This document shows positions 9,501 to 38,200 of a DNA stretch of 64,000 nucleotides, one piece after another. Position 1 is the stretch's first letter. Every line of letters begins with the position of its first letter. Position numbers and translations under genes: made by a program. Below the pieces are notes generated by a model that ran no database searches, was not told the origin of the DNA, and saw only the letters and a list, made by a program, of their open reading frames with translations. The stretch is from Ginglymostoma cirratum (taxonomy: Eukaryota), in contig JAHRHZ010000002.1 of the NCBI GenBank assembly GCA_024137785.1, forward strand, positions 15,633,978 through 15,697,977, written 5' to 3'.

Positions 9501-12500
9501 AATTGGCATTTTTCATCGGATTTTATTTGATTTATTATTGTCACATGTACCTAGGTACAGTGAAAAGTTTTGTTTTGCGCGCAGTACAGATAGATCATAC
9601 CATGCAAAGTGCATCAGGGTAATAGAACAGAGAGAGGAATACAATGTTACGGCTGCAGAGAAGGTGAACAAACAGCAAGATCAACATTAAATTTAAAATT
9701 TGAGTGGTCCATTTGGAAGTCTTAATATCAGTGGGGAAGAAGCTGTTCTTGTGTGTTTACGCTTTTGCACCTTCTGCCCAACAGAAGAAGTTGCAACTGG
9801 ATTGGGAGGCGCAGTTTGAGAATATCTGATGATTCAGTTCCAGAGCAGTCTGTCACTTGGGGTAAATCTTGAATGAACTCTAATTAGGAGCAAAGAAACA
9901 GGACAGTATACTGTACCTTCGGTGGAGATCCAGCAACTAAATGAACCACTAAGGAGAAGAAACTGCAAGATTTGGAGTAGATTTTGAAGAAGCCGAAGAC
10001 CTGGAATTATTAGCAAATTCTAATCAACATTTCTTGAGCAAGGAATGTTCCCACAGTGAAATTAATATTCTATACAAAGAGCCACAAATTGAAATTTGTA
10101 AGAGTCACATTTAGATGATTCATAGCCTCTATTATTACATCGCAACATTTTTGTAAACATTCAATACTTTTGCTTACGTTCTGTTTTGACCTTAAGGAGG
10201 GATGCGATTATTTCACAAATCAATGCTGTTACTGCAGCAGCCAATGCGATGATGGATAATATCCTTGCACAGTCATGTAGCAGTCGAGCACCTGAAACAA
10301 AAAATTTATTTTCAGCTCATGCTACTTTGAAAACAATTTGCAAATTTCAAACAAGGTCTGCTATGCCTTAAAATTGTGCTTCTTTTGGATCTTGCATGTT
10401 ACAAATAGAACACCTCCCACCAAGCTTATTCTGTTTCAATGCGATGGACACACATTTAGAAATAGTGCTGAGGTCTTTCCATTCTATCTCAACGACATAC
10501 TTTGATTCAGTAATCTAGGACCGCATCAATTTCCTATATTGGGCAACCTGCCGCGTTCTGGAGGAGAATCTGAACTTAAACTGTGATCTTCTCCATTAAT
10601 GTTCTCAGTAGATGCCAAAGGTTTGCATCATGAGATTGCAGGCTTGATCTTTTTGTTTTGCCCCAGGTCATGAATGGGGAGCCTGGACATTTCCCAGCCC
10701 CACAAACCCGACCCGACCTGTTTAAAAGTGCCCCCAATGGTTGGATTTTCGTACTAAGATGTAGGTGAAAGCGGGAGCCGTCCCAGACAACGTGACAAAG
10801 AACTCAGAGGCTTCTGGGTGTGGAGGTGTAATGGCTGAAAGTCTGGCCCTGGTGCTCCAGTGCATTGTTTTTGAAGATGCGAAGATAAAAGATAAATGAA
10901 AGCTGACTTCATCCCCCACTCCCCATCACCATACCCCCACATTGCCAGTGTCCCACCCATGCCAACCAATGCCAGTTTGTGCCCTCAATCTACCCTCCAT
11001 GGCTCTTTATAACCCCTATGCCAAACAGTCATGCCAGTCCATGTCCATTCCTTATCCTCTTGGCTTAAATCTACCATAAAACCTCAATAAGTATCCAAGT
11101 AAATAAGTAAATACTATGGACATCCAGTCCCTACACACCTGTATTCCCCATGCTGATGGCCTAAAGGCCCTCCACTTCTTCCTTCCCGCAGAACTGACCA
11201 ATCCCCCTCCACCGACACCATCCGCTTAGCCAAACTCGTCCCCACCCTCAACAACTTCTCTTTCAATTCCTCCCACTTCCTACAGACAAAGGGGGTGGCC
11301 ATGGGTACCCGCATGGGCCCAAGCTATGCCTGCCTCTTTGTAGGTTACGTGGAACAATCCCTCTTCTGTACCTACACTGGCCCTAAACCCCACCTCTTCC
11401 TCCGTTACATTGATGATTGCATCGGCGCCGCCTCGTGCTCCCACGAGGAGCTCGAACAGTTCATCCACTTCACCAACACCTTCCACCCCAACCTGAAGTT
11501 CACCTGGACCATCTCCAACACTTCTCTCTCCTTCCTGGACCTCTCTGTCTCCATCTCTGGTAACCACCTAGAAACCGATGTCCATTTCAAGCCCACTGAC
11601 TCCCACAGCTACCTGGAATACACCTCCTCCCACCCACGTTCCTGCAAAAATGCCATCCCCTATTCCCAATTCCTTGGCCTCCGCCGCATCTGCTCCGAGG
11701 ATGAGACATTCCACTCCCGTACATCTCAAATGTCCTCATTCTTCAAGGACCGCAACTTCCCCCACACAGTGGTCGAGAACGCCCTCGACCGTGTCTCCCG
11801 TATTTCCCAGAACACATCCCTCATGCCCCGTCCCCACAATAATAACCAAAAAAGAATACCCCTCGTCCTCACGTACCAGCCCACCAACCTCTGGATCCAA
11901 TGCATCATCCTCCGACACTTCCGCCATCTGCAATCAGACCCCACCACCAAAGACATTTTTCCCTCCCCACCCTTATCTGCCTTCTGGAGGGACCACTCCC
12001 TCCGCGACTCCCTTGTCCGCTCCACACTCCCCTCCAGCCCCACCACACCCGGCACTTTTCCCTGCAACCGCAGGAAGTGCTACACCTGCCCCCACACCTC
12101 CTCTCTCACCCCAATCCCAGGCCCCAAGAAGACTTTCCACATCAGGCAGAGGTTCACCTGCACATCTGCCAATGTGGTATACTGCATCCGCTGTACCCGT
12201 TGTGGCTTCCTCTACATCGGCGAAACCAAGCGGAGGCTTGGGGACCGCTTTGCAGAACACCTGCGCTCAGTTCGCAACAAACAACTGCACCTCCCAGTNN
12301 NNNNNNNNNNNNNNNNNNNNNNNNNNNNNNNNNNNNNNNNNNNNNNNNNNNNNNNNNNNNNNNNNNNNNNNNNNNNNNNNNNNNNNNNNNNNNNNNNNTC
12401 CACATCAGGCAGATGTTCACCTGCACATCTGCCAATGTGGTATACTGCATCCGCTGTACCCGTTGTGGCTTCCTCTACATCGGCGAAACCAAGCGGAGGC

Positions 12501-15500
12501 TTGGGGACCGCTTTGCAGAACACCTGCGCTCAGTTCGCAACAAACAACTGCACCTCCCAGTCGCGAACCATTTCAACTCCCCCTCCCATTCCTCAGATGA
12601 CATGTCCATCCTGGGCCTCCTGCAATGCCACAGTGATGCCACCAGAAGGCTGTAGGAACAGCAAATCATATTCAGCCTGGGAACCCTGCAGCCCAATGGC
12701 ATCAATGTGGATTTCACAAGCTTCAAAATCTCCCCTCCCCCAACCGCATCCCAAAACCAGCCCAGTTCATCTCCACCTCCCTAACCTGTTTTTCCTCTCA
12801 CCTATCCCCTCCTCCCACCTCAAGCCACACCCCCATCTCCTATCTACTAACATCATCCTGCCCCCTTGACCTGTCCGTCCTCCCTGGACTGACCTATCTC
12901 CTCCCTACCCCCCCCACCTACACTCACCTTTACTGGCTCCATCCCCGCCTCTTCGACTTGTCTGCCACCTCTCCACCTATCCTCTCCTCTATCCATCCTC
13001 TATCCGCCTCCCCCTCTCTCCCTATTTATTTCAGAACCCTCTTCCCCTCCCCCATTTCTGATGAAGGGTCTAGGCCCGAAACGTCAAGTTTTCCTGCTCT
13101 TCTGATGCTGCTTGACCAGATTAGCAACTAGTTTCAGTTTGACAGTTCTTTTGATGGGTCTCTTACCTTGCACCCTGTTAAATATCTCATCCGTTCTTTT
13201 GGCAAATCCACTGAGTTCATGTACTTGTTACACATTTTCGTGTCTGCTATAACAATCCAAAAGAGCTCTTGACTTTTCATAAAGTGCGCTTTATCTTTTC
13301 AAAAATAAACCTTGACCTTCTCCCAAGAACAATATCCAAAAAGCTCAACACTTCTATAAAAGGAGATTCTACTACTCTGAAGAACTTCAGACCTTCTCCA
13401 ATCAGACCTAAAGTGCAGAAGTTGTGTGTTGGACATCCCACTAGCCTGAGACAGCTATGCTTTTTCACATGAAACTGCCTTTGTGAACTGCAAAGGTACA
13501 AATTTGAACTCAGCTCCCTGGGAAAATAATGGGGCCATGTTTGGGAATGGAGTTTAGCCTCTGCTGGTAATTTTGTAACAGTACAGGGAAAGACTCCCTG
13601 TCTATGTGTGAAAATTCAGGTATCCGTCTACAAACCTCCATCCTACTAATTTTTCCTGGCGTGAAAATATATCGTCCTTCTACTTTTACATCTTTAGTAT
13701 CACAGAGACATACAGCACGGAAACAGACCATTCTGAAACATACCAACTGTAATCCCAAACCAAACTCGTCCCACCTGCCTGCTCCTGGCCCATATCCCTC
13801 CAAATATTTCTTATTCATGTACTTCTCTAGATGTCTTTTAAATGTTGTAACTGTACACACTTCCTCTGGAAGTTCATTCCACACATGAACTACTGTCTGT
13901 GTAAAAAAAACTGTCCCAATGACTTTTTTAATCTTTCTCCTCTCACCTTAAAAATATGCCCTCTAGTCTTGAAATCCCCTGCCCACAGGTAAAGATGTCT
14001 TTTCTATACCCCTCATGATTTCATAACCTCTATAAGGTCATCACTCAACCTCCTACGCTGGAGTGAAAGTAATCCCAGCCTATCCAGCCTCTCCTTATAA
14101 CTCAAACTGTCCATTCCCAGCGACATTCTGGTAATCTCTTCTGAACCCTCACCAGCTTGAGAAATATCTTTCCTATGACGGGGCAACAAGACCTGGACAC
14201 AGTACTCCAGAAGAGGCCTCACCAACGTCCTGTACAATTGCATTACGACATCCCAACTCCTATACTCAAAGGTCTCTTTGTTGAGGCTGAGTGCAGGCCC
14301 AATAGTGGAATATCATTTTTAACTAAGAAACGGAACCGATTACCAGACATGACTCACCGTGTAAAATAAGGCGATACGCATCGCTCCTCTTGCTGAACAG
14401 ATTTTCCACGGTGCAGGTGTAGGTGCCGCAGTCTGTTTTTGTGGCTTTAACAATGATCAACTTGCTGTTGTTTTGTACCAACTGATAATGTTGGCCATTC
14501 TCTATCAAGTCAGGACCTTTCCTCCACAGAATGGAACTCGCTTTTCCTCCAGCCACGTGACAGGTCAGTTCAACAGTGGAATCCACATAGGTAGCTTTGA
14601 CCAAAGGTTCTGCCAATAGTTCTGTGCCAGTGAATAATTATTCAGGTAAATAGGTCTGAGCCTGAGGTATTATGGGCCAGACCAGACGCCTCAAAACATT
14701 TTAAGAAGGTAGCCTAGACCCTAGCCTTTTCTTATTTATAAAGGCAAATGTGAAGTGCCTGTTCCAGATGCCAAACTACTCGATGTTAAGCAAAACACAA
14801 CTTATTTAAACACTAAGGTTAAAATACAACCAAGGAAAGGGAATTTAGAGCAACTTAACACTATTGGAAAACTTATCAGAAAAATAGAGACGGTAACAAT
14901 TATTAATTAGCTGTTCCAATATAGTAACATCTCGTAAACACATCCCTTGGCAAAAAGGAAAAGTCAGACACAGATTATCACATGCAGTCCTCCAACCCAG
15001 GAGGAAACAAAAAAAAAGTCAAGAGAAAATTCAGAGAGCGGCAGCCAGGAGATATTCACCGAAGCTTCCAACTCTGTTGAGATCCCAGTGGCTTCTACTT
15101 AAAGGAAAACCCAGAAATTCTGATTTGTAAGAGCTGACCACACCCATTCAGGCTGTTAAAAAAACCCAAGGCCTCCCAAGCTGTTTACTCAAATGGTCCT
15201 GGTAGACTATTCAGCGCCTCTGTCTTACAAATAAGAAAATTTTCATGTAAACACTTGACAAATTCCACTCCATCTATGCCCTTAATACACTGGCAGTCCC
15301 AGCCAATGTTTTAATTAAGAGATAATAGGTACTACAGCTGCTGGAGATAACAAGGTGTGGAGCTGGATGAACACAGCAGGCCAAGCAGCATCATAGGAGC
15401 AGGAAAGCTTGACGTTTTGGGTCTAGACCCTTCTTCAGAAAAAAAAATTGTTGTGGGGCTGGAGTCAAGTGTAGGGCAGACCAGGTAAAAATGACACTTT

Positions 15501-18500
15501 ACTTCCCTAAAGGAGTTGTTATTGCGGGGACGGGGTGTGAGGGATGAGTTGCGGGAAATGCGGGAGACACGGTCAAGGGCGTTCTTGACCACTGCGGGGG
15601 GGCAAGTTGCGGTCCTTGAAGAATGAGGACATCTGATACATACAGGAGTAGAATGCCTCATCCTGGGAGCAGATGCGGTGGAGGCAAAGGAATTGGGAAT
15701 AGGGGATGGCATTTTTGCAGGAAGGTGGGTGGGAGGAGGTGTATTCTAGGTAGCTGTGGGAGTCGGTGGGCTTGAAATGGACATCGGTTTCTAGGTGGTT
15801 ACCCAAGATGGAGATAGAGAGGTCCAGGAAGGAGAGAGAAGTGTTGGAGATGGTCCAGGTGAACTTAAGGTTGGGGTGGAAGGTGTTGGTGAAGTGGATG
15901 AACTGTTCGAGCTCCTCGTGGGAGCATGAGGCGGCGCCGATACAGTCACCAATGTAACGGAGGAAGAGGTGGGGTTTAGGGAGCACGAGGCGGCGCCAAT
16001 ACAGTCATCAATGTAACGGAGGAAGAGGTGGGGTTTAGGGAGCACGAGGCGGCGCCAATACAGTCATCAATGTAACGGAGGAAGAGGTGGGGTTTAGGGC
16101 CAGTGTAGGTACGTAACCTACAAAGAGGCAGGCATAGCTCGAACAGTTCATCCACTTCACCAACTCCTTCCACCGTGTCTCCCGCATTTCCCGCAACTCA
16201 TCCCTCACACCCCGTCCCCGCAATAACAACCAAAAAAGGATTCCCCTCGTCCTCACTTACCACCCCAACAACCTCCGGATCCAACACATCATCCTCCGAC
16301 ACTTCCGCCATCTGCATTCCGACCCCACCACCAAAGACATTTTTCCCTCCCCACCCTTGTCTGCTTTCCGGAGGGACCACTCTCTCCATGACTCCCTTGT
16401 CCGCTCCACACTCCCCTCCAGCCCCACCACATCCGGCACTTTTCCCTGCAACCGCAGGAAGTGCTACACCTGCCCCCACACCTCCTCCCTCATGCCAATC
16501 CCAGGCCCCAAGAAGACTTTCCACATCAAGCAGATGTTCACCTGCACATCTGCCAGTGTGGTATACTGCATCCGCTGTACCCGTTGTGGCTTCCTCTACA
16601 TCGGGGAAACCAAGCGGAGGCTTGGGGACCGCTTTGCAGAACACCTGCGCTCAGTTCGCAACAAACAATTGCACCTCCCAGTCGCGAACCATTTCAACTC
16701 CTCCTCCCATTCCTCAGACGACATGTCCATCCTGGGCCTCCTGCAATGCCACAGTGATGCCACCAGAAGGCTGCAGGAACAGCAAATCACATTCAGCCTG
16801 GGAACCCTGCAGCCCAATGGTATCAATGTGGATTTCCCAAGCTTCAAAATCTCTCCTCCCCCAACCGCATCCCAAAACCAGCCCAGCTCGTCCCCGCCTC
16901 CCTAACCTGTTCTCCCTCTCACCTATCCCCTCCTCCCACCTCAAGCTGCACCCCCTCTCCTATCTACTAACCTCATCCCGCCCCCTTGACCTGTCCATCC
17001 TCCCTGGACTGACCTATCTCCTCCCTACCTCCCCATCTACACTCACCTTTACTGGCTCCATCCCCGCCTCTTTGACTTGTCTGTCTCCTCCCCACCTATC
17101 CTCTCCTCTATCCATCTTCTATCCGCCTTCCCCTCTCTCCCTATTTATTTCAGAATCCCCTTCCCTTCCCCCATTTCTGATGATGGGTCTAGGCCTGAAA
17201 CGTCAAGCTTTCGTGCTCCTATGATGCTGCTTGGCCTGCTGCATTCATCCAGCTCCACACCTTGTTATCTCAATGTTTTAATTAAGTTACCTCGGACTCT
17301 TATAAACTCCAGAGGATGCAGGCCGAGCCTCTTAAGCTATTCATTATAAGGCAGACCACACACTCCAGGTGTTAGACCCGCTGGTGACAGATTCATCACC
17401 CTACCTGTCTCAGCAGCAGGAATCTGACTTTATGACTCTCGCAAGGTTAATTTTACGCACCATTTTTGCTTGTCGATACAGTGAGGCTGAAGGATCGCAC
17501 ACTCATAATCCAATCACAAAGTCTGTACGCCTCCAAGATCGCCCTGCTGTATCCCTACTTCTGCTGAAATTCTCAGCTCCCTCTCTCCCACTAAAGTTGG
17601 GGAGGTGGTGGCCGAGTGATAAGGTCACTGGTCTATCATCCCGAACCTCAGTATGTTGTTCTGAGGGACACAGCATAGAATGCCACCATGGTAGATGGTG
17701 AAATTGGAATTCAATTTCCTTCCTAAAATCTGGAATTAACTGGCGACCATGTAACCTCTGTCAGTTGTCTTAAAAGCGTCTGGTTTGCCAATGTCCTTCA
17801 AGAAAGGAAATCGGCCATCCTTACCTGGTCTGGACTACATGTTGCTCTCACAATGTGAGTCAGTTTTAACTGTTCTCTGGGCAATTAGAGATAGGGCAAT
17901 AAATGCTGGCCCGGCTAGCGTACCCCACTTCCCGTGAATGAATTTTAAAAGAAAACTCCTTTATTCTAACGCTCTCCTGGCTGGTCTCCCAACCTCTGTC
18001 CTTCAACACATCTAAAATTCCATTGCTCCCACCGTCTGTTACCATATCCCATCACACATCATCCCCATCCTCACTGGCATGCATTGGTTCTTTTAGCTGC
18101 TGCATTATTAGACACTTCAGAGTCTCAGTAGGCTCAAGTGAGAGCTCAAGGGCCACCTGACACGTCCATTGTATTCCACAGTATGGGAGTAAAGTTGAGG
18201 AAGGGGCAGCACGGTGGCTCAGTGGTTAGCGCTGCAGCCTCACAGCACTAAGGACCTGGGTTTGATTCCACTCTCAGGTGACTGTCTGTCCGGAGTTTGC
18301 ACATTCTCCCCGTGTCTGTGCGGGCTTGCTCTGGTTTCTTCCCACAGTCCAAAGCTGTGCAGTCTCCATGGACAGGCCATGCTAAATTACCCCAAGTACC
18401 CAGAAATCAGGGTCATGGGAATAGGATATGGGGTGGGTCTGGGTGCGATTCTCTTCCAAGGGTTGGTGTGGACTCGATGGGCCAAATGGCCTGCTTCCAC

Positions 18501-21500: not shown

Positions 21501-24500
21501 CATTGATCCATTGGATGCATTAAAACGTAAACGGGATTTGAAGTGTTTATTTGGTCTCTGGATTGGGGAATTTGGTACGTAATCCAAAATAGTGACAAGT
21601 TTTCCATTGCTGTTATTGAACGTCCATTCAATCTGACTGTCGCTGAGATTCGTTCCGTGATCAGGATCCAGTAAAACTGATGAACCAATGGCAGCCACAA
21701 CATTGTCCCCTCCAAGTGATTGACATGAAAAACAGAAACAAAAGTAATCCATTAACATGTGAAAATGAAGCATTGAGCAATTGTGAAGTGAAATTGTAAC
21801 ATTATGCCAGCAGGTGTCTGGAGACTCCAAAACAAATAGCCCTTTGTATGGTGTGCTTTACCAAGGCATTCAAAAGCCTTCACAGCGAGTGATGTAATCT
21901 TTGAAATGCAGGCACAATTGCAATTCGTCCACAGCGAATCTCCAGATAAAGCAGCATCAGAAGAGCAGGAAGGCTGACATTTTGGGCCTAGACCATTCTT
22001 CAGAAATGGGGAGGGAAAGGGGGTTCTGAAATAAATAGGGAGAGAGGGGGAAGCGGATAGAAGATGGATAGAGGAGAAGATAGGTGGAGAGGAGACAGAC
22101 AGGTCAAAGAGGCGGGGATGGAGCCAGTAAAGGTGAGTGTAGCTGGGGAGGTAGGGAGGAGATAGGTCAGTCCAGGCCTCCTCTACATCGGGGAAACCAA
22201 GTGGAGGCTTGGGGACCGCTTTGCAGAACACCTACACTTGGTTCGCACTAAACAACTGCACCTCCCAGTCGTGAACCATTTCAACTCCTCCTCCCACTCC
22301 TCAGCTGACATGTCCATCCTGGGCCTCCTGCAGTGCCACAACGATGCCACCCGAAGGTTGCAGGAACAGCACCTCATATTCCGCTTGGGACCCTGCAGCC
22401 CAATGGTATCAATGTGGATTTCACAAGCTTCAAAATCTCCCTTCCCCTACCGCAACCCAAAACCAGCCCAGCTCGTCCCCGCCTCCCTAACCTGTCCTTC
22501 CTCCCACCTATACCCTCCTCCCAACTCAAGTCCCACCCCCATCTCCTACCTACTAACCTCATCCCGCCCCCTTGACCTGTCCGCCCTCCCTGGACTAACC
22601 TATCTCCTCCCTAACTCCCCAACTATACTCACCGTTACTGGCTCCATCCCCGCCTCTTTGACCTGTCTGTCTCCTCTCCACCTATCTTCTCCTCTATCCA
22701 TCTTCTATCCTCCTCCCCCTCTCTCCCTATTTATTTCAGAACCCTCTTCCACTCCCCCATTTCTGAAGAAGGGGCTAGGCCTTCCTGTTCCTCTGATGCT
22801 GTTTGGCCTGCTGTGTTCATGCAGCTCTACACCTTGTCATCTCAGATTCTCCAGCATCTGCAGTTCCTACTATCTCTGAATCTCCAGATAATCTGTTTGT
22901 GTGATGAATAATTGGGATAAATACCATTGTAACATCAGAGGCCACTCCCATCCTCTTCAGAATGGTACCATGGGACCTTCACATCCACTTGAGAGCACCT
23001 GGGACATTTTCTGAGCATCTCATCTGAAAGGCATCACCTCTGACAGGTCAGCCCTGCCTCAGGCAGACAGGAGCAAAGTGAGAGATAATAGGTACTGCAG
23101 ATGCTGGAGAATCCGAGATAACAAGGTGTGGAGCTGGATGAACACAGCAGGCCAAGCAGCATCATAGGAGCAGGAAAGCTTGACGTTTCGGGCCTAGACC
23201 GTTNNNNNNNNNNNNNNNNNNNNNNNNNNNNNNNNNNNNNNNNNNNNNNNNNNNNNNNNNNNNNNNNNNNNNNNNNNNNNNNNNNNNNNNNNNNNNNNNN
23301 NNNNNNNNNNNNNNNNNNNNNNNNNNNNNNNNNNNNNNNNNNNNNNNNNNNNNNNNNNNNNNNNNNNNNNNNNNNNNNNNNNNNNNNNNNNNNNNNNNNN
23401 NNNNNNNNNNNNNNNNNNNNNNNNNNNNNNNNNNNNNNNNNNNNNNNNNNNNNNNNNNNNNNNNNNNNNNNNNNNNNNNNNNNNNNNNNNNNNNNNNNNN
23501 NNNNNNNNNNNNNNNNNNNNNNNNNNNNNNNNNNNNNNNNNNNNNNNNNNNNNNNNNNNNNNNNNNNNNNNNNNNNNNNNNNNNNNNNNNNNNNNNNNNN
23601 NNNCATAGGAGCAGGAAAGCTTGACGTTTCGGGCCTAGACCGTTCATCAGAAAATGATTTTCTGATGAAGGGCCTAGGCCCGAAACGTCAAGCTTTCCTG
23701 CTTCTATGATGCTGCTTGGCCTGCTGTGTTCATCCAGTTCCACATCTTGTTATGCAGGAGCAAAGTGAAGTTGGTGGTAAGGAATGGCTGAGGGAAGGAA
23801 GGGCTGGGGGGTGGGGTTTGGAGGTGGTGGGGGAGGACAGGAGAGAAGAAGAGAAATATCCCAGAGGCCTAGTCAGGACAGAAAGAGAAAGAGTCAACAG
23901 CAAAGCCGAGGGGGTGTGTGTAAAGAGCCCAGAGGAAGGTGGATATCACAAAAAAATACCCAGAATGAAGACACTAGCGAAGAAGAGACCAAACCCAAAA
24001 GGATGGAAAAGTAACCCACAGAGAAAAGGCCCAGTGGGAGGTGAGGAAGAGAAAATTGGCAGAGGCAAGCAGGGATTGAGAATGAACCCAAAGGGAATGG
24101 TTGGGGAAAGAGCCAAAAGGACAGGTTGGGGGGAATGGTGGATGCCCAAGAAAGGAGGGAAGGGATTAGGAGAATGAAAGGGAGGAAGAAGAATGGGGAA
24201 TGGAAAATGGGAAGTGGGAGGGAGGAATGCAAATGTGTGGGCAGCACGTGGGAATTTGTGGAGAGCACTGAAATCCCAGGCAACCACAATGTGATCATTG
24301 TCCACAACCTGACTCATTTCAGTTCAAAGACATTGGGCAGGAATCCAAGCTACAAACCTTGTCAGGCATCAGACAGAGGGAGAGTTACTTTGATTCTTGG
24401 CTTCAGGAAGCACTCACAGCCCCACTGTTCAGAAGGTCTTTAGAAGTGTATATATAATGCTGTGGTTAGGGATTTACTCTAAATGGGGATAGACAGTTTG

Positions 24501-32087: not shown

Positions 32088-32222
32088 TCAGGTCCGCCAT
32101 ATCTGAATCCGAGCATGTTCAGTAATCTCGTCGGTAGCGTACGTCTTCTTTCCTGTAGCTCCCGTAGACTCATACAACTTCATCTCACTGAATGTCACAA
32201 CAGGGTTGCTCGATAATGAATT
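32088..32222 (-). CDS. Gene B exon 5, last coding exon (NSLSSNPVVTFSEMKLYESTGATGKKTYATDEITEHARIQIWRT*)
   Basis: Strong polypyrimidine acceptor ...ttttggcttcag|, phase 0, CpG-containing patch in AT-rich DNA, ITIM/ITSM-shaped motifs. Confidence 0.68.
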   Translation of the reverse strand, partial: NSLSSNPVVTFSEMKLYESTGATGKKTYATDEITEHARIQIWRT

Positions 32223-35200
32223 CTGAAGCCAAAGAACAGAAACAAAATCAGAAATTTATGAGCAGTTGCTTAGATAAGTCAAATAAATAAATAGACTAAT
32301 CCTAAATGGAAGAGGAGACGAACTATTAACAGAGAAACATCTCCGACATTTAATCTTGTAATTTTCAATTGTTTTTGAGAAGAGGTAATGTATTATGTAA
32401 TTACTTTTTCTCTGATAATATATTAGCTGTACTTAATTCTGAATAATCAGGAGTAACCTCAGGATTTTGTTCCCATATCTCCCTTGTACGAATTTGGTAC
32501 ATCTGACCTTATGACTCGCGTTTTAGAAACGTAGTCTGCACATTCACAATTAGCCTGTTTTTCACAGTTTTTTAAAAATTTGATTTTTTAAATGATTTTG
32601 CTTTAAAGGCTTTTTGTTTAAGACGTACATTAGGATGTTCTTTTGTATAAGTAGTCCTGGTAAACTGCCAAAGCCTGAAGTCATGTTGAAGTGTACAGAG
32701 GTGTGTTGAAATATTGGATGGAAGTGTGGATGAGTAACTTTTAAGTTTTAATTTCAATAGAGAGCAAGTCAGATGTGATTGAGGTGTGAAAGGTATAGCT
32801 AATTCAATATTGCCCTTTTAACATCTTTGACCAAAGGTACAATTTGTCCCATACACCCAGGCGAGGAAGGGTCACCGGACCAAAACGTTAACTTTTTTTT
32901 CTTCACAGATGCTGCCAGACCTGCCGAGCTTCTCTGGCAGCTTCTGTTTTTATAATTAACTTTTTGTTCGCTCTATTTCAACATATGAAATAGTAGAATT
33001 TCAGTAAACTGTAAGCATTGCAGACCATAATGAAGTGGAAAGATTTCTTCATGATCCATGCTCTACCTCCCAAGCAAATATGTCGGACAATACAGTAACA
33101 TTATGAAAAGGGGCAGGTTAGTGCTGACTCTTTGCTGTTTTATTGTGTGAAATAATCATAGTCTGATAACTTTAATGTGGCTCTTAGACCTGGCAGTTCT
33201 TCTCTATCATGAATAGAGACCTGGGGGAGTAGACAAAGTGCTACAACCAGGAAGTTCTAGCATATCTTTACTGTTGAGTGTAGCTGACAAGCAAAGGGAC
33301 AGCTCAAGCAATCCATCAAATTAGTTCTGTAGAAACTTGTGAGGTTCAACTTCATCTTATTTTGTGGAGCAAAGTGGGTGTTACCAAACCATCTGTCAGT
33401 TCTCTGCCCTGCTCAATATTCAGCTCTGCTGAAGCAGAGAGTGCAGAATATAGGATGGGTTGTACAACAGGTAGGCAACTCAATAATTTCCACTTTGATC
33501 CACACTGATTAGTTTTGATTAACTTGGTCATTGGGAGGCACTGTAGCTCAGTGGTTAGCACTGCTGCCTGGCAGGACTACGGACTCAAGTTTCATTCCAG
33601 CCTTAGGTGACTGTCTCTATGGAGTTTTCATTTTCTCCCTGCGTCTGCATGGGTTTCTGTTGGGTGCTTTGGTTTCCTCTCACAGTCCAAAAATATGCAG
33701 ATTGGGTAGATTGGCCATGCTATATTGTCTGTAGTGTCTAGAGGTATAGAATTGGTGGATTAGCCATGGTAAGTGTGGGTTACCTCGACAGGTTGGGGCT
33801 AAGTTTGGGCGGGATGCTTTTTATAGGGTCAGTGCAGACTCTTTCTACACTGTAGGGATTCTATGATTTTACTTATACACATTTTTTAATCCAAACTAAA
33901 ATTAGATGAGGTTTCCATAATTACTCAGTAAATTATTCTCTCTATTCCTGGATATAAGTAATACAGTGGTCTCTCTCAAGAGCCTTGTAGTAATTTCAAA
34001 TCTAAGAATATATGGAAAATTACAGGCAGTCTCTGTTATCACCTCGCTGATTTCTTTCAATAATCTACGTTACATGACTTCAGACCTGGTGAGTTATATG
34101 TTCAATTCCATTAGTTTTGTTCCAAAATCAAACCCTTTTCTGCACCCAGCTCCATCAATTTCTCCATATCGTCCCCTACAATATTTTTATTTATATTCCT
34201 ACCATCATTCTCACCATTCCTTCTGTTATCCTCGCCAGAAGATTGGTTTACATTTAAACAAGACTTGAAGAGGTAGGGGTTTTATAGCCAGGCTTTCACC
34301 TGTTCTTTTAATTTTCCTAAATCTTGAATCCATAATCTCTGCATCAGACATTGGAGTGCAGCTTAGTTTAGCTAAAGCTAACTGCTCAGTATTCACTGAC
34401 TGAACATTTATAGTCAGAGTGTGAGATTCTAAATGCAATTATTCTCAAGAATGGTAGGTAGATATTGATTAGGATATCAATTTGTGTGTTGTCATTGATA
34501 TGAAACTTAAGATCGTTGATACATATAGTATATATACTTGTATTTTTTTAATATTTATAACCTTATGCTTTTTTTAATGGCATCTTTCTATCTGTAAACA
34601 GTAATGGACAAACTACAAACAATCCATTCCAGATTTCTGAAGAAGGGTCCAGACCCGAAACGTCAGCTTCCCTGCTCCTCTGATGCTGCTTGGCCTGCTG
34701 TGCTCACCCAGCTCTACACCTTATTATCTCAGATTCTCCAGCACCTGCAGCTCCTACTATCTCTCCCATTCCAGATTAGATGTCTTTATATCGTGCACCT
34801 TTGCTGATGGTTGAACAGGCCAGTCCTTAAGAGGCAGGTTCTGCCACAAATGCCACACATGAAGCCACCAACTGTAATTTTGGGTTGCTTTTTGCAGTAG
34901 CTTCTGTTACTAAGCCAGGAAGTGCATGCTGGCCCAAAAGAGGCATTGCTCGTTTTCCTCTGTAATGACATATCAATGTTTTGGGCTTTCACGTCAAGCT
35001 CGCAAGGAATGTGTAAGCAAAGCCTTCCCCTATCATACAGCTGCTGGTCTGTGTTCCTGCCTCCTCTAGTAGCTCCATCAGCAATGACAACATACTCAAA
35101 CGACTAGACTTGTGCCTCATCACACACTTTGTCTTTAATGGTCCAGTATACAAACAGATCAATGGCTCACCCATGGGGTCACCCATCTCAGGACTCATTG

Positions 35201-38200
35201 CAGAGACAGTCATGCAAAGTCTGGAACACACTAACCTCTCCCATATCCAATCTAAATTGTGGATCCTGGACAACACATTTGCCATTATTAAACACAACAA
35301 ACTAGAAGAGATGCACCACCTCACCAACAATGTATTCACCAGGATTAGACTCACAAGAGAAAAAGAAAGCAACAATCACCATCTATTTCTGGACGTCAGA
35401 GTTGAACATATGACCAACGGGGAGTTCCAAACCTCAAGTACACAGGAAAGCAACACAGACTGACCAAATTCTCAACTTCCATAGCAACCACCCCAACGGC
35501 AACAAACAAAGTTGCATTAGGACACTATTTAAACGGGCCACCACTCACTGCAAAATGCCAGAACTACACAGGAAAGAGGAAGAGCACCTATACAAAATCT
35601 ACGCTATGAACAGATATCCCCACATATTCATCTGCAGATGCCTGCTAAACACACAACAGCAAGAGGACACCGTATGCTCTAACACACTGGCCACACTGCC
35701 CTATGTCAAGAACATATCAGAACTGACAACGAGACTCCTACGACCACTAGGAATCATGGTGGCACACAAGCCCACAGCGACTCTACGACAAACACTCACA
35801 AGGATTAAAGACCCCATTCCCACAAGATGCAGAACCAACGTAGTTTACAAAACACCATGCAACGACCTCCACAAACATTACATCAGACAGACAGGAAGGA
35901 AACTAGCATTCAGAATACATGAACATCAGCTAGCAGCAAAACGACATGACAAACTTTCCTTTATATCAGTACACTCGGACAATGAAGGCCATCAGTTTAA
36001 CTGGGACAACATAACCATAGCAGCCCAAGCCAAACATAGACATGCACAGAAATTCCTAGAGGCATGGTTCTCAACCCATAATGCAATCGACAAACATATA
36101 GAATTGGGCCCCATATACAAACCCATACAGAACAAAACAGGAAATGACACTACTCACTATAACAGACCGGACAGTATAAATTCCAAGTGGAGTAGAACAA
36201 CATCACTTCATCGGAGGCCTCACTGATGATGTTACCTAGCATGGTGACAAAACATCTGAACGAGAACAAGCCAGCTCGGCGAGCAAGTCAACAACCTCAC
36301 CCACAATCCGAGTTATAGATCTTTGCTAAAAGATCTTTGCTTAAATCAAAATCCTGTGTATGGCCACAATTCCTATTGTTGCGTGTACAACTTCAACATT
36401 TAACTTGAAGTTGACTATGTAAACATTCAGATTGGAAATGACGCATGTGAACTATTAAGTGGTTGTGTACTGTGAAGAACATAGAACTGATTAGTTCTGT
36501 CTGTCTGTCCCTACTCTGGTTACCTTGCATTCAGCAACTGACTAGAGGCGACATTACAGGGAACTTAAGTTATTTCAGGGGACTGGAAATAGTATTAATT
36601 GCGTTACTAAAAGTTCTGTGTACCATTAACATGTGGTAGAGCATTCTGATTTTCCGACCAGTGGAAACACAGGTGTCAGTTACATTGGCCTACATAAACC
36701 TCACCACCCTAACTTGTTAGCTCTTCCTGTCCAGAGAACAAGGCAGTTAATTCTTCAGTGTTTATGTAATGTACATCTCAGCTGCCATTGAGATAAGGTG
36801 GTTCCAGTTTTTAATCTTTATTTCCAGGTTTACCCTGACCTGAAGTTGACTGGAACTTCTCCCAAACTGAAAATTATAATGAACGAGTGAGAAGGATTTT
36901 AAGATGAGACCATCATTGCCAATTTTGTTGCAGGGGTGGAGGTCAGTTTGAACAGGATTTTTTTTAAATGCTCACACTCTGTAATGAAGCACAACAGGTC
37001 AGTTAAGCGGTCACTTGTGTTTCCTGTCAGTTATTTTCATGTTTTGATGTTAGTTGATACCTTCATATTGCACAGCATTGCCGGGTTTTGAGTAAATATT
37101 GAATGGGAATAAAAATTAAGACTTGGCACAACGTACCCTCAATACCAACTGGGACATATTACTGGAACATTTAATGTGGTGACTTAAGCGCTAAAGAATT
37201 AAACACCTTATGCTCTGGAAGGAAGGGCTAAGAAAATATTTGCCCACAAACATTAACCTGAACCTTAAAGTTCCATTTAACTGCAAGCTGGTTTTCTGTG
37301 GTCAAACAAAGAGTCAGAAGGATTTCACAAGCAAGTATAAAAAGGCACCTCACCATTGTGTAAAAAAAACTCAAACAATTAACCATATGCCAATTAGAAT
37401 TTTCTCACCTTTCAGCTATTATTATTTTGATTCTTTAGCCACAATATATAAAATTGAAGGTTCATTCTGTGACGGGCCTTTTTCTCAATAGCGACCTTTT
37501 GAGAAAGCTGAACTAGACAAGTGTCATGATTTCTATAGTCCCACCTGCAATAAGTAATAGCTGGAGATATAGGGGAGGATTGGTGAAGGATTTTGGTCTT
37601 GCTGATGTTGTGTAAGAGACCATCCTTTGTATACAGAGCTAAAGAAGTTGAGGGCAATCAGAGTCACTGACAGTATGTTATGCGTATAATAAGTTATGAA
37701 TGTGCTGAATGGTCACCTTAGTCTTAGTTCTCAGCCTTTTGAGATTGAAGATTTTCTTTTGAATCAAAACTCAATAATGACCTGTTGGAGAAGTTGGTTC
37801 TGAAGAACCTCCATGACCAGTCTTAGTCCTTTGCTAACATTTTATTATTTTTGTTTTTACTTTTTTATCAATTTTGAATTTTGTGTGCTAGAAATGACCC
37901 ATGGACTTTGGCACAGCTTGTGTTTAAAGGAAAAGAACAGGCCAATCAAGTTTTGTTTGTTTGTGAGGCCAGGCCAGGAGGCAGGATGAGCCTTCATTAA
38001 AAATGTTCTAATAGATTCGGGAACAACGGGAGGAGCATTGTTTTCAAACAGCTGGCAGAAGATGGCTATTGATGAGGTCAGTATTTGGGAATTGGTTCCA
38101 CCAAGTCTGGAAAGGACCCTATGTTCAAACGACAAATGACAATTGTCAAGCAAGGATTCAGAAAGAGTCAATCAGACAATCAGGATGGAACCAGAATTGA

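Follow-up and report, generated by a model that had tools for sequence, protein, structure and literature searches.

Eroded tyrosine motifs in a likely activating, arginine-bearing receptor of the nurse shark

Gene B of the nurse shark Ginglymostoma cirratum, a carpet shark, encodes a single-IgV membrane protein that, to judge from its sequence and its relatives, is probably an activating, adaptor-coupled paired receptor, with no motif tyrosines in its tail and a conserved membrane arginine through which an ITAM adaptor would bind. Comparison of homologous tails indicates that the motif erosion is old, shared, repeated and untidy, and no peculiarity of the nurse shark genome (4.36 Gb), of which we analysed a stretch of 64,000 nucleotides (the window; GCA_024137785.1, contig JAHRHZ010000002.1, positions 15,633,978 to 15,697,977).

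Gene B structure and splicing

Five minus-strand exons (Table 1) yield a 247-amino-acid protein comprising a signal peptide, one IgV domain, a stalk, a transmembrane (TM) segment and a 67-residue tail. Exons 3, 4 and 5 are joined at GT..AG ends (41137>40384 and 40329>32222) in one contig of run X2; these joints were found in one of four runs, among the matches listed, and that X2 is RNA is a guess, yet the joints are those of splicing. A second X2 contig spans 32001-32223 with 0 differing letters. The links between exons 1 and 2 and exons 2 and 3 were inferred from full-length orthologues, and the raw RNA runs X9 and X10, with next to no coverage of gene B exons, carry no weight on expression. 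Exon 4 ends in phase 0, fixing the frame of the last exon; skipping it would leave a 16-residue tail, and only then would phase 1 of the last exon apply. Exon-4-skipped isoforms are annotated in other species (P0239 of Hemiscyllium, P0245 of Heptranchias), but no skipping was seen in the nurse shark. Gene B is closest to zebra shark P0004 (83% identity in the IgV domain), with which it pairs inside the carpet sharks in trees.

Several annotated models in related sharks bear on the exon structure. Past the end of exon 4, 24 nt further on, lies another in-frame donor (40328-40305, minus strand) that fits the 8-residue-longer isoform P0237 annotated in C. plagiosum; no use of this donor was seen in the nurse shark. 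The annotation of C. plagiosum also includes P0171, an isoform that omits the TM exon and is predicted to be secreted. C. punctatum P0006, in which the gene B TM exon is fused to a downstream gene, was set aside as an annotation artefact, because a normal model (P0238) exists in the same species.

Table 1 Features of gene B and its surroundings in the window
Feature	Position	Strand	Evidence or comment
Exon 1, coding part: signal peptide, phase-1 donor	51884-51809	-	88% to residues 1-26 of zebra shark P0004; GT donor
Exon 2: IgV	50315-49941	-	Pfam V-set E 2.3e-9; 83% to zebra shark P0004
Dead TM-exon duplicate (Arg-type) in intron 2	46049-45918	-	blastn 67% over 140 nt, E 8e-7; tblastn
Exon 3: stalk and TM segment	41238-41137	-	88% to P0006; 3' junction in run X2
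Arg165 codon, then 15 uncharged residues (41194-41150) and Lys	41197-41195	-	TM comparison with sharks and rays
Exon 4: 56-nt juxtamembrane tail exon	40384-40329	-	both junctions in run X2
Exon 5, coding part: C-terminal 44 residues with stop codon	32222-32088	-	86% to zebra shark P0004; junction in X2
Proximal motif VTFSEM (Phe214)	32198-32181	-	Phe codon TTC 32192-32190
Tyr220, non-canonical context	32174-32172	-	Tyr in 5/5 carpet-shark rows, 0/14 others
Tyr231, non-motif site	32141-32139	-	varies Tyr/His/Cys among sharks
Distal motif TEHARI (His239)	32123-32106	-	His codon CAT 32117-32115

Tail motifs and their homologues

The last exon is open for 44 codons (32222-32091, minus strand), ends in TGA at 32090-32088 and encodes VTFSEM and TEHARI, 25 codons apart. 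A sequence-only reading had taken these hexamers for an ITIM and an ITSM with both tyrosines missing. Its factual core was borne out: both hexamers are present, TTC and CAT are each one substitution from a tyrosine codon, and the frame is open in a spliced last exon. Homologues do carry tyrosine at the proximal column; with Met at +3, VTFSEM would miss the ITIM consensus even with a tyrosine (S/I/V/LxYxxI/V/L in the available text of PMC13278318). The 67-residue tail contains 0 canonical motifs, whether ITIM or ITSM (TxYxxV/I), and Pfam found no match in the tail exon. Two other tyrosines are kept, Tyr220 and Tyr231, with Thr and Asp at their +3 positions, outside the ITIM/ITSM consensus. By itself the paired shape is modest evidence: an ITIM-like shape followed by an ITSM-like one, with codons one step from tyrosine, arose in 0.5-0.7% of 20,000 codon shuffles and in 15/1632 open 44-codon stretches of the window, and the ITIM-like shape alone in 20-24% of shuffles. 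It is the homologues that make the eroded motifs real.

We aligned the last exon in 18 cartilaginous-fish proteins, hand-picked at one per gene and aligned without gaps at both sites, with the spacing of 25 kept; we omitted duplicate isoforms as well as proteins annotated with a tail that does not include the exon, such as P0009, P0014, P0015, P0025, P0026, P0033 and P0035. The proximal column holds Tyr in 8 proteins, Phe in 5, Arg in 2 and Gln, Asn and a gap in 1 each; the distal column holds His in 7, Tyr in 5, Phe, Asp and Asn in 1 each and gaps in 3. Tyrosine at both columns was found in 4/18, namely Mustelus and three ray genes. Heterodontus has VLYSEI, Mustelus VLYSDM and TEYGRI, and Pristis VLYTER and VDYAQI, with VEYDKI also seen among homologues. 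It had been foreseen that the disarmed-motif idea would fall if homologues never had tyrosine here or if the exon were not spliced to gene B; instead, tyrosine occurs at both columns (8/18 and 5/18), and in X2 the last exon reaches the TM exon via exon 4.

Phe at the proximal column is common to all 4 other carpet sharks and distal His to 7/8 other galeomorph sharks; Phe214 and Tyr220 occur together in 5/5 carpet-shark rows and 0/14 others. Elsewhere, Heptranchias has distal Phe, one stingray gene proximal Phe and the basking shark proximal Arg, and several ray genes have shortened tails. Most sharks have Met at +3 of the proximal motif, and residues -2, +3 and +5 of the distal motif are hydrophobic or Thr in all 10 sharks. 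Tyr/His variation at the non-motif site Tyr231 means that such turnover need not be adaptive. Parsimony over 13 rows on an assumed species tree makes tyrosine ancestral at the proximal site (cost 2 versus 4). At the distal site it makes His ancestral for galeomorphs (1 versus 3), so that the Mustelus distal tyrosine reads as a regain, and gives a three-way tie between Tyr, His and Phe at the shark-ray root.

Ray genes of the uncharged-TM type have Arg (Arg/Lys) at +3 of the proximal site in this exon, and their better ITIMs sit further upstream, on an additional tail exon with no counterpart in gene B. The tails of three such genes (P0173, P0027 and P0015) resemble tandem copies of one two-tyrosine exon, and in the first tail copy of Pristis P0173 the distal tyrosine column has His, parallel to gene B.

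A conserved membrane arginine

The TM segment is the best-conserved region of gene B, with 15-19/19 residues identical in 9 other sharks and 12-13/19 in 2 rays. Identity to gene B in five non-carpet sharks is 79-84% in the TM segment, 62-71% in the IgV domain and 48-64% in the last exon, and the TM segment exceeds both IgV and tail in each distant species. A register of Glu, 19 residues and Lys is common to Arg-type and uncharged paralogues, which places the arginine close to the outer end of the span, where other members have Pro or a hydrophobic residue. Hydrophobic residues precede the arginine in the ray Arg-type genes P0003 and P0167; in gene B the residues before Arg165 are polar, so that this arginine could simply mark the outer boundary of the membrane span. 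The FcR-gamma-associating motif NxxR (PMC2413239, available text) was not found in gene B, which reads A-K-I-R, and no row of the TM alignment (A2) has Asn at -3. Gene B shares with FcR-gamma-coupled receptors an arginine at the N-terminal TM end and lacks the uncharged TM segment of ITIM/ITSM inhibitory receptors.

The nurse shark genome contains one zeta/FcR-gamma-family TM exon (E 1.2e-12, the sole match over the Pfam cut-off), nearer to CD3 zeta than to FcR-gamma as named from PDB matches only. A complex prediction for the TM exon with two zeta/FcR-gamma-type exons, run with no alignment and no controls, scored 0.02 against a mark of 0.34 and speaks neither for nor against pairing.

Arginine-bearing and uncharged family members

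We surveyed 246 proteins, of which 181 have the family IgV domain and 139 of those a TM call (42 do not). One canonical tyrosine motif was present in 8/45 Arg-type proteins and two in 0/45, versus 60/94 and 42/94 of the others; the rows are isoforms and kin under a mechanical classification, and many of the short tails may only reflect where an annotation stops. Among tails of at least 40 residues, the counts were 7/21 versus 60/73. The Fisher p of 3e-7 overstates the split between the types because rows are non-independent and the rule is mechanical. The Arg-type orthologues in Heterodontus and Mustelus retain one canonical motif.

A tree of the TM segment and its flanks (24 rows, P0015 not among them; 56 columns, Arg site included) requires 2 label changes and places sharks and rays in both types; the ray protein P0026, which has a short tail, represents a separate gain of the arginine. 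The IgV tree (30 rows) requires 6 label changes, the uncharged catshark protein P0025 falls among Arg-type shark genes, and an uncharged-TM clade is rejected (p-AU 1.5e-5). Related ectodomains with opposite TM and tail types were found, catshark, stingray, devil ray and sawfish holding both types or the uncharged one. The two trees thus disagree as in paired receptors, and signalling and ectodomain histories differ; ectodomain homogenisation is the pattern described for paired receptors in the available text of PMC3210942.

These results favour one half of the sequence-only reading: a non-inhibitory member of a paired family agrees with the split between arginine and motifs and with the discordant trees. 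Its other half, a disarmed inhibitory receptor acting as a decoy, fits less well: the Arg-bearing lineage occurs in both sharks and rays, the losses are ancient and shared, and genome searches found no close inhibitory partner.

Ectodomain and family assignment

In the IgV domain of gene B the cysteines normally found in strands B and F are missing, and there is an additional pair, Cys76/Cys88. Its structure model is an all-beta IgV (pLDDT 89.8), and a fold search returned generic IgV matches only (PD-L1, TM-score 0.69-0.78; 16-23% identity), so the ectodomain is not that of PD-1. Pfam on gene B found V-set only.

SLAM/CD2 receptors combine an IgV plus C2 ectodomain with an ITSM tail; gene B has no C2-type exon between exons 2 and 3 and no intact ITSM, and this assignment was rejected. 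V domains of the CD300/TREM/pIgR type carry the canonical B-F cysteines that gene B lacks, and no match was named MDIR or CD300, so MDIR/CD300/TREM was rejected as well, MDIR having been compared by description only. The N domains of CEACAM and CD2/SLAM are, like that of gene B, IgV domains without the B-F disulfide, and the neighbours of gene B are IgV+C2 genes; gene B is unlike both in its extra cysteine pair and in its proposed activation by a TM arginine rather than by a tail ITAM or by ITSM/SAP. PDB phmmer gave weak matches to CEACAM8/6 (E 4e-4 to 2e-3). CEACAM was rejected because only these weak matches were obtained and intact homologues exist in fowl (duck and chicken), for which the available text of PMC13278318 reports no complete CEACAM gene.

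The named homologues belong to birds, turtles, a frog and a caecilian as well as to sharks and rays, with no mammal or teleost among those listed (22 + 108 rows). They are intact in duck and chicken, and many bird members have tails with TIYxRV and V/LxYxSI. Database names are 'uncharacterized', 'HEPACAM-like', 'CEACAM5-like' and 'A33-like'. Literature searches, covering neither subscription journals nor supplements, returned no description of the family and, with subscription journals likewise outside their scope, no paper naming chicken LOC771657; the part of PMC4079198 available mentions only one skate CEA-like EST. The family of gene B is apparently unnamed.

Relatives and neighbours in the nurse shark genome

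No close uncharged-TM, inhibitory twin of gene B emerged from genome searches with the gene B IgV domain and with sawfish and catshark uncharged-type proteins, nor from tblastn over 658 kb around the window, of which ~55 kb reads N and could hide one. Broken relatives do exist. The TM-exon copy in intron 2 has an in-frame stop, no acceptor AG, lost splice sites and deletions. An Arg-type paralogue 2.7 Mb away (locus L084, contig C2:18340514-18349223, minus strand) has a partial IgV with a stop and a TM exon and exon 4 at 72-82% DNA identity; its last exon was not found in the stretches examined. A short-tailed Arg-type gene lies at C2:18.52 Mb. A more distant sister subfamily is represented by a short-tailed Arg-type gene at C2:15.31 Mb and, ~280 kb away from gene B, by a gene with an uncharged TM segment and a tail reading LTYSLL and TVYAFP (L025-L027, C2:15366956-15385309, plus strand), in which no IgV exon was found between the exons for the signal peptide and the TM segment, owing either to an assembly gap or to loss.

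The surroundings contain further immunoglobulin genes. Downstream gene A (21758-8015, minus strand) has IgV and C2-type exons followed by several hydrophobic exons (~10290-10167, 8260-8130), which points to an Ig protein that crosses the membrane several times; an IgV exon nearly identical to that of gene A lies on the plus strand at C2:15737173. At least 6 further IgV+C2 genes, in both orientations and some as inverted near-duplicates, occupy C2:15.29-15.82 Mb. The introns of the window contain many short repeats, and decayed retroelement pieces with reverse-transcriptase and GIY-YIG-like frames, which we take to resemble Penelope-type elements, lie at 11283-13128, 15335-17221, 22166-22908 and 35017-36223.

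Discussion

We propose that the Arg-bearing lineage arose from an ancestral receptor with tyrosine motifs before sharks and rays parted. Arg165 would pair with the acidic residue in the TM segment of a dimeric ITAM adaptor of the FcR-gamma/CD3-zeta type, the tail would no longer have been needed for phosphatase binding, and its tyrosines may then have eroded piecemeal and independently. Phe214 and His239 are not phosphorylatable like tyrosine, so SHP-1/SHP-2 would not dock there. Since the Arg lineage is present in both sharks and rays, the arginine predates the tyrosine losses and suggests an activating role. An order of charge first and ITIM loss later has been proposed for rat Ly49s3 (PMC2213150, available text), and SHP-1/2 binding sites are reported, in the part of PMC12151841 available, to be conserved to sharks.

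That the two hexamers were never tyrosine motifs scarcely merits belief: loose shapes of this kind are common by chance, most sharks have Met and the uncharged ray genes Arg/Lys at +3, and the distal root state is tied three ways, yet canonical VLYSEI, TEYGRI, VDYAQI and VEYDKI stand at the same gap-free columns, which largely refutes this account for the distal motif. A weightier competitor, to which we assign a real but minority chance, is that gene B is a decoy or silent adhesion receptor that binds ligand without signalling, its tail disarmed and its arginine only a boundary residue. The missing NxxR, the polar residues before Arg165 and a tail free of canonical tyrosine motifs agree with this, as do annotations in other sharks of an isoform that omits the TM exon (P0171) and of short-tailed isoforms (P0239, P0245), and a close inhibitory twin is neither needed nor found. 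A silent anchor, however, should not leave the TM segment as the most conserved region, and the arginine keeps one register across short-tailed family members and arose a second time in P0026.

It is rather unlikely that the tail was rewired, signalling through Tyr220, Tyr231 or phospho-independent binding in the manner of receptors with both a charged TM segment and a tyrosine motif. The co-occurrence of Phe214 and Tyr220 in carpet sharks, the kept residues at distal -2, +3 and +5 and an open 67-residue tail lend themselves to such a role, but both tyrosines lie outside the ITIM/ITSM consensus (+3 Thr and Asp), Tyr231 varies and the last exon is just 48-64% identical in distant sharks; Glu at -1 also speaks against SAP-type phospho-independent binding, which needs a hydrophobic residue there (PMC12151841, available text). 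Neutral decay, with gene B surviving its lost partner and its tail drifting free of any function, seems very improbable: broken relatives do occur in the genome (the dead TM exon in intron 2 and the Arg-type paralogue 2.7 Mb off), but gene B has five intact exons, an open frame, intact orthologues in 9 other sharks and a conserved TM segment and IgV domain. The reading we prefer remains that of a probable activating receptor.

The logic of activating and inhibitory pairing, as in KIR, Ly49 and PIR, is textbook knowledge. Several likenesses to activating KIR/Ly49 emerge from the available text of PMC2213150: a charged TM residue goes with lost ITIM tyrosines, and rat Ly49s3 has dual-feature relatives comparable to the Heterodontus and Mustelus orthologues of gene B. 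In contrast to the KIR/Ly49 switches, ~3.5-18 million years old (PMC2213150), the Arg lineage here spans sharks and rays, and the gene B tail is full length with point changes where KIR/Ly49 tails are cut by a stop; no sequence kinship is implied. LILRA2, PIR-A, NKp46, GPVI, OSCAR, Fc-alpha-R and Xenopus XFL TM1 resemble gene B in an arginine near the outer TM end and in relatives with an uncharged TM segment and tyrosine motifs, but gene B departs from FcR-gamma-coupled receptors in its A-K-I-R in place of NxxR, its single IgV without B-F cysteines rather than C2-type domains and its 67-residue tail (PMC2413239, available text). Skate MDIRs, as described in the accessible part of PMC3031540, are likewise a multigene set of activating and inhibitory Ig receptors of cartilaginous fish; they resemble CD300/TREM/pIgR, from which gene B is set apart, by description, through its absent B-F cysteines. 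The PD-1 tail has the same two-motif layout of ITIM and ITSM, and Mustelus TEYGRI and ray VEYATV are similar to its distal consensus, (T/V)EYATIx(F/Y) (PMC12151841, available text); gene B, unlike PD-1, has neither motif tyrosine, and its ectodomain match is only generic IgV.

We conclude that the motif erosion is real and ancient, affects a spliced exon and concerns what is likely the activating member of a paired-receptor family that apparently has no name. A broader proposal, which we hold tentatively and think less likely than not, is that gene B belongs to an undescribed family of paired single-IgV receptors that is present in sharks and rays and extends to caecilians, turtles and birds; its Arg lineage would predate the shark-ray split, display erosion at every intermediate stage among living sharks and, in carpet sharks, have outlived its close inhibitory twin. 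Descriptions of innate activating/inhibitory receptor pairs in cartilaginous fish are few, and the family forms a natural series (both tyrosines, one, none, cut tail) on one conserved Arg-bearing TM segment. Such a series would allow a direct test, in a far older lineage, of the sequence 'gain charge, then lose ITIMs' proposed from KIR/Ly49, and the intact chicken and duck members, annotated only as 'uncharacterized' or 'HEPACAM-like', open the family to study in those birds.
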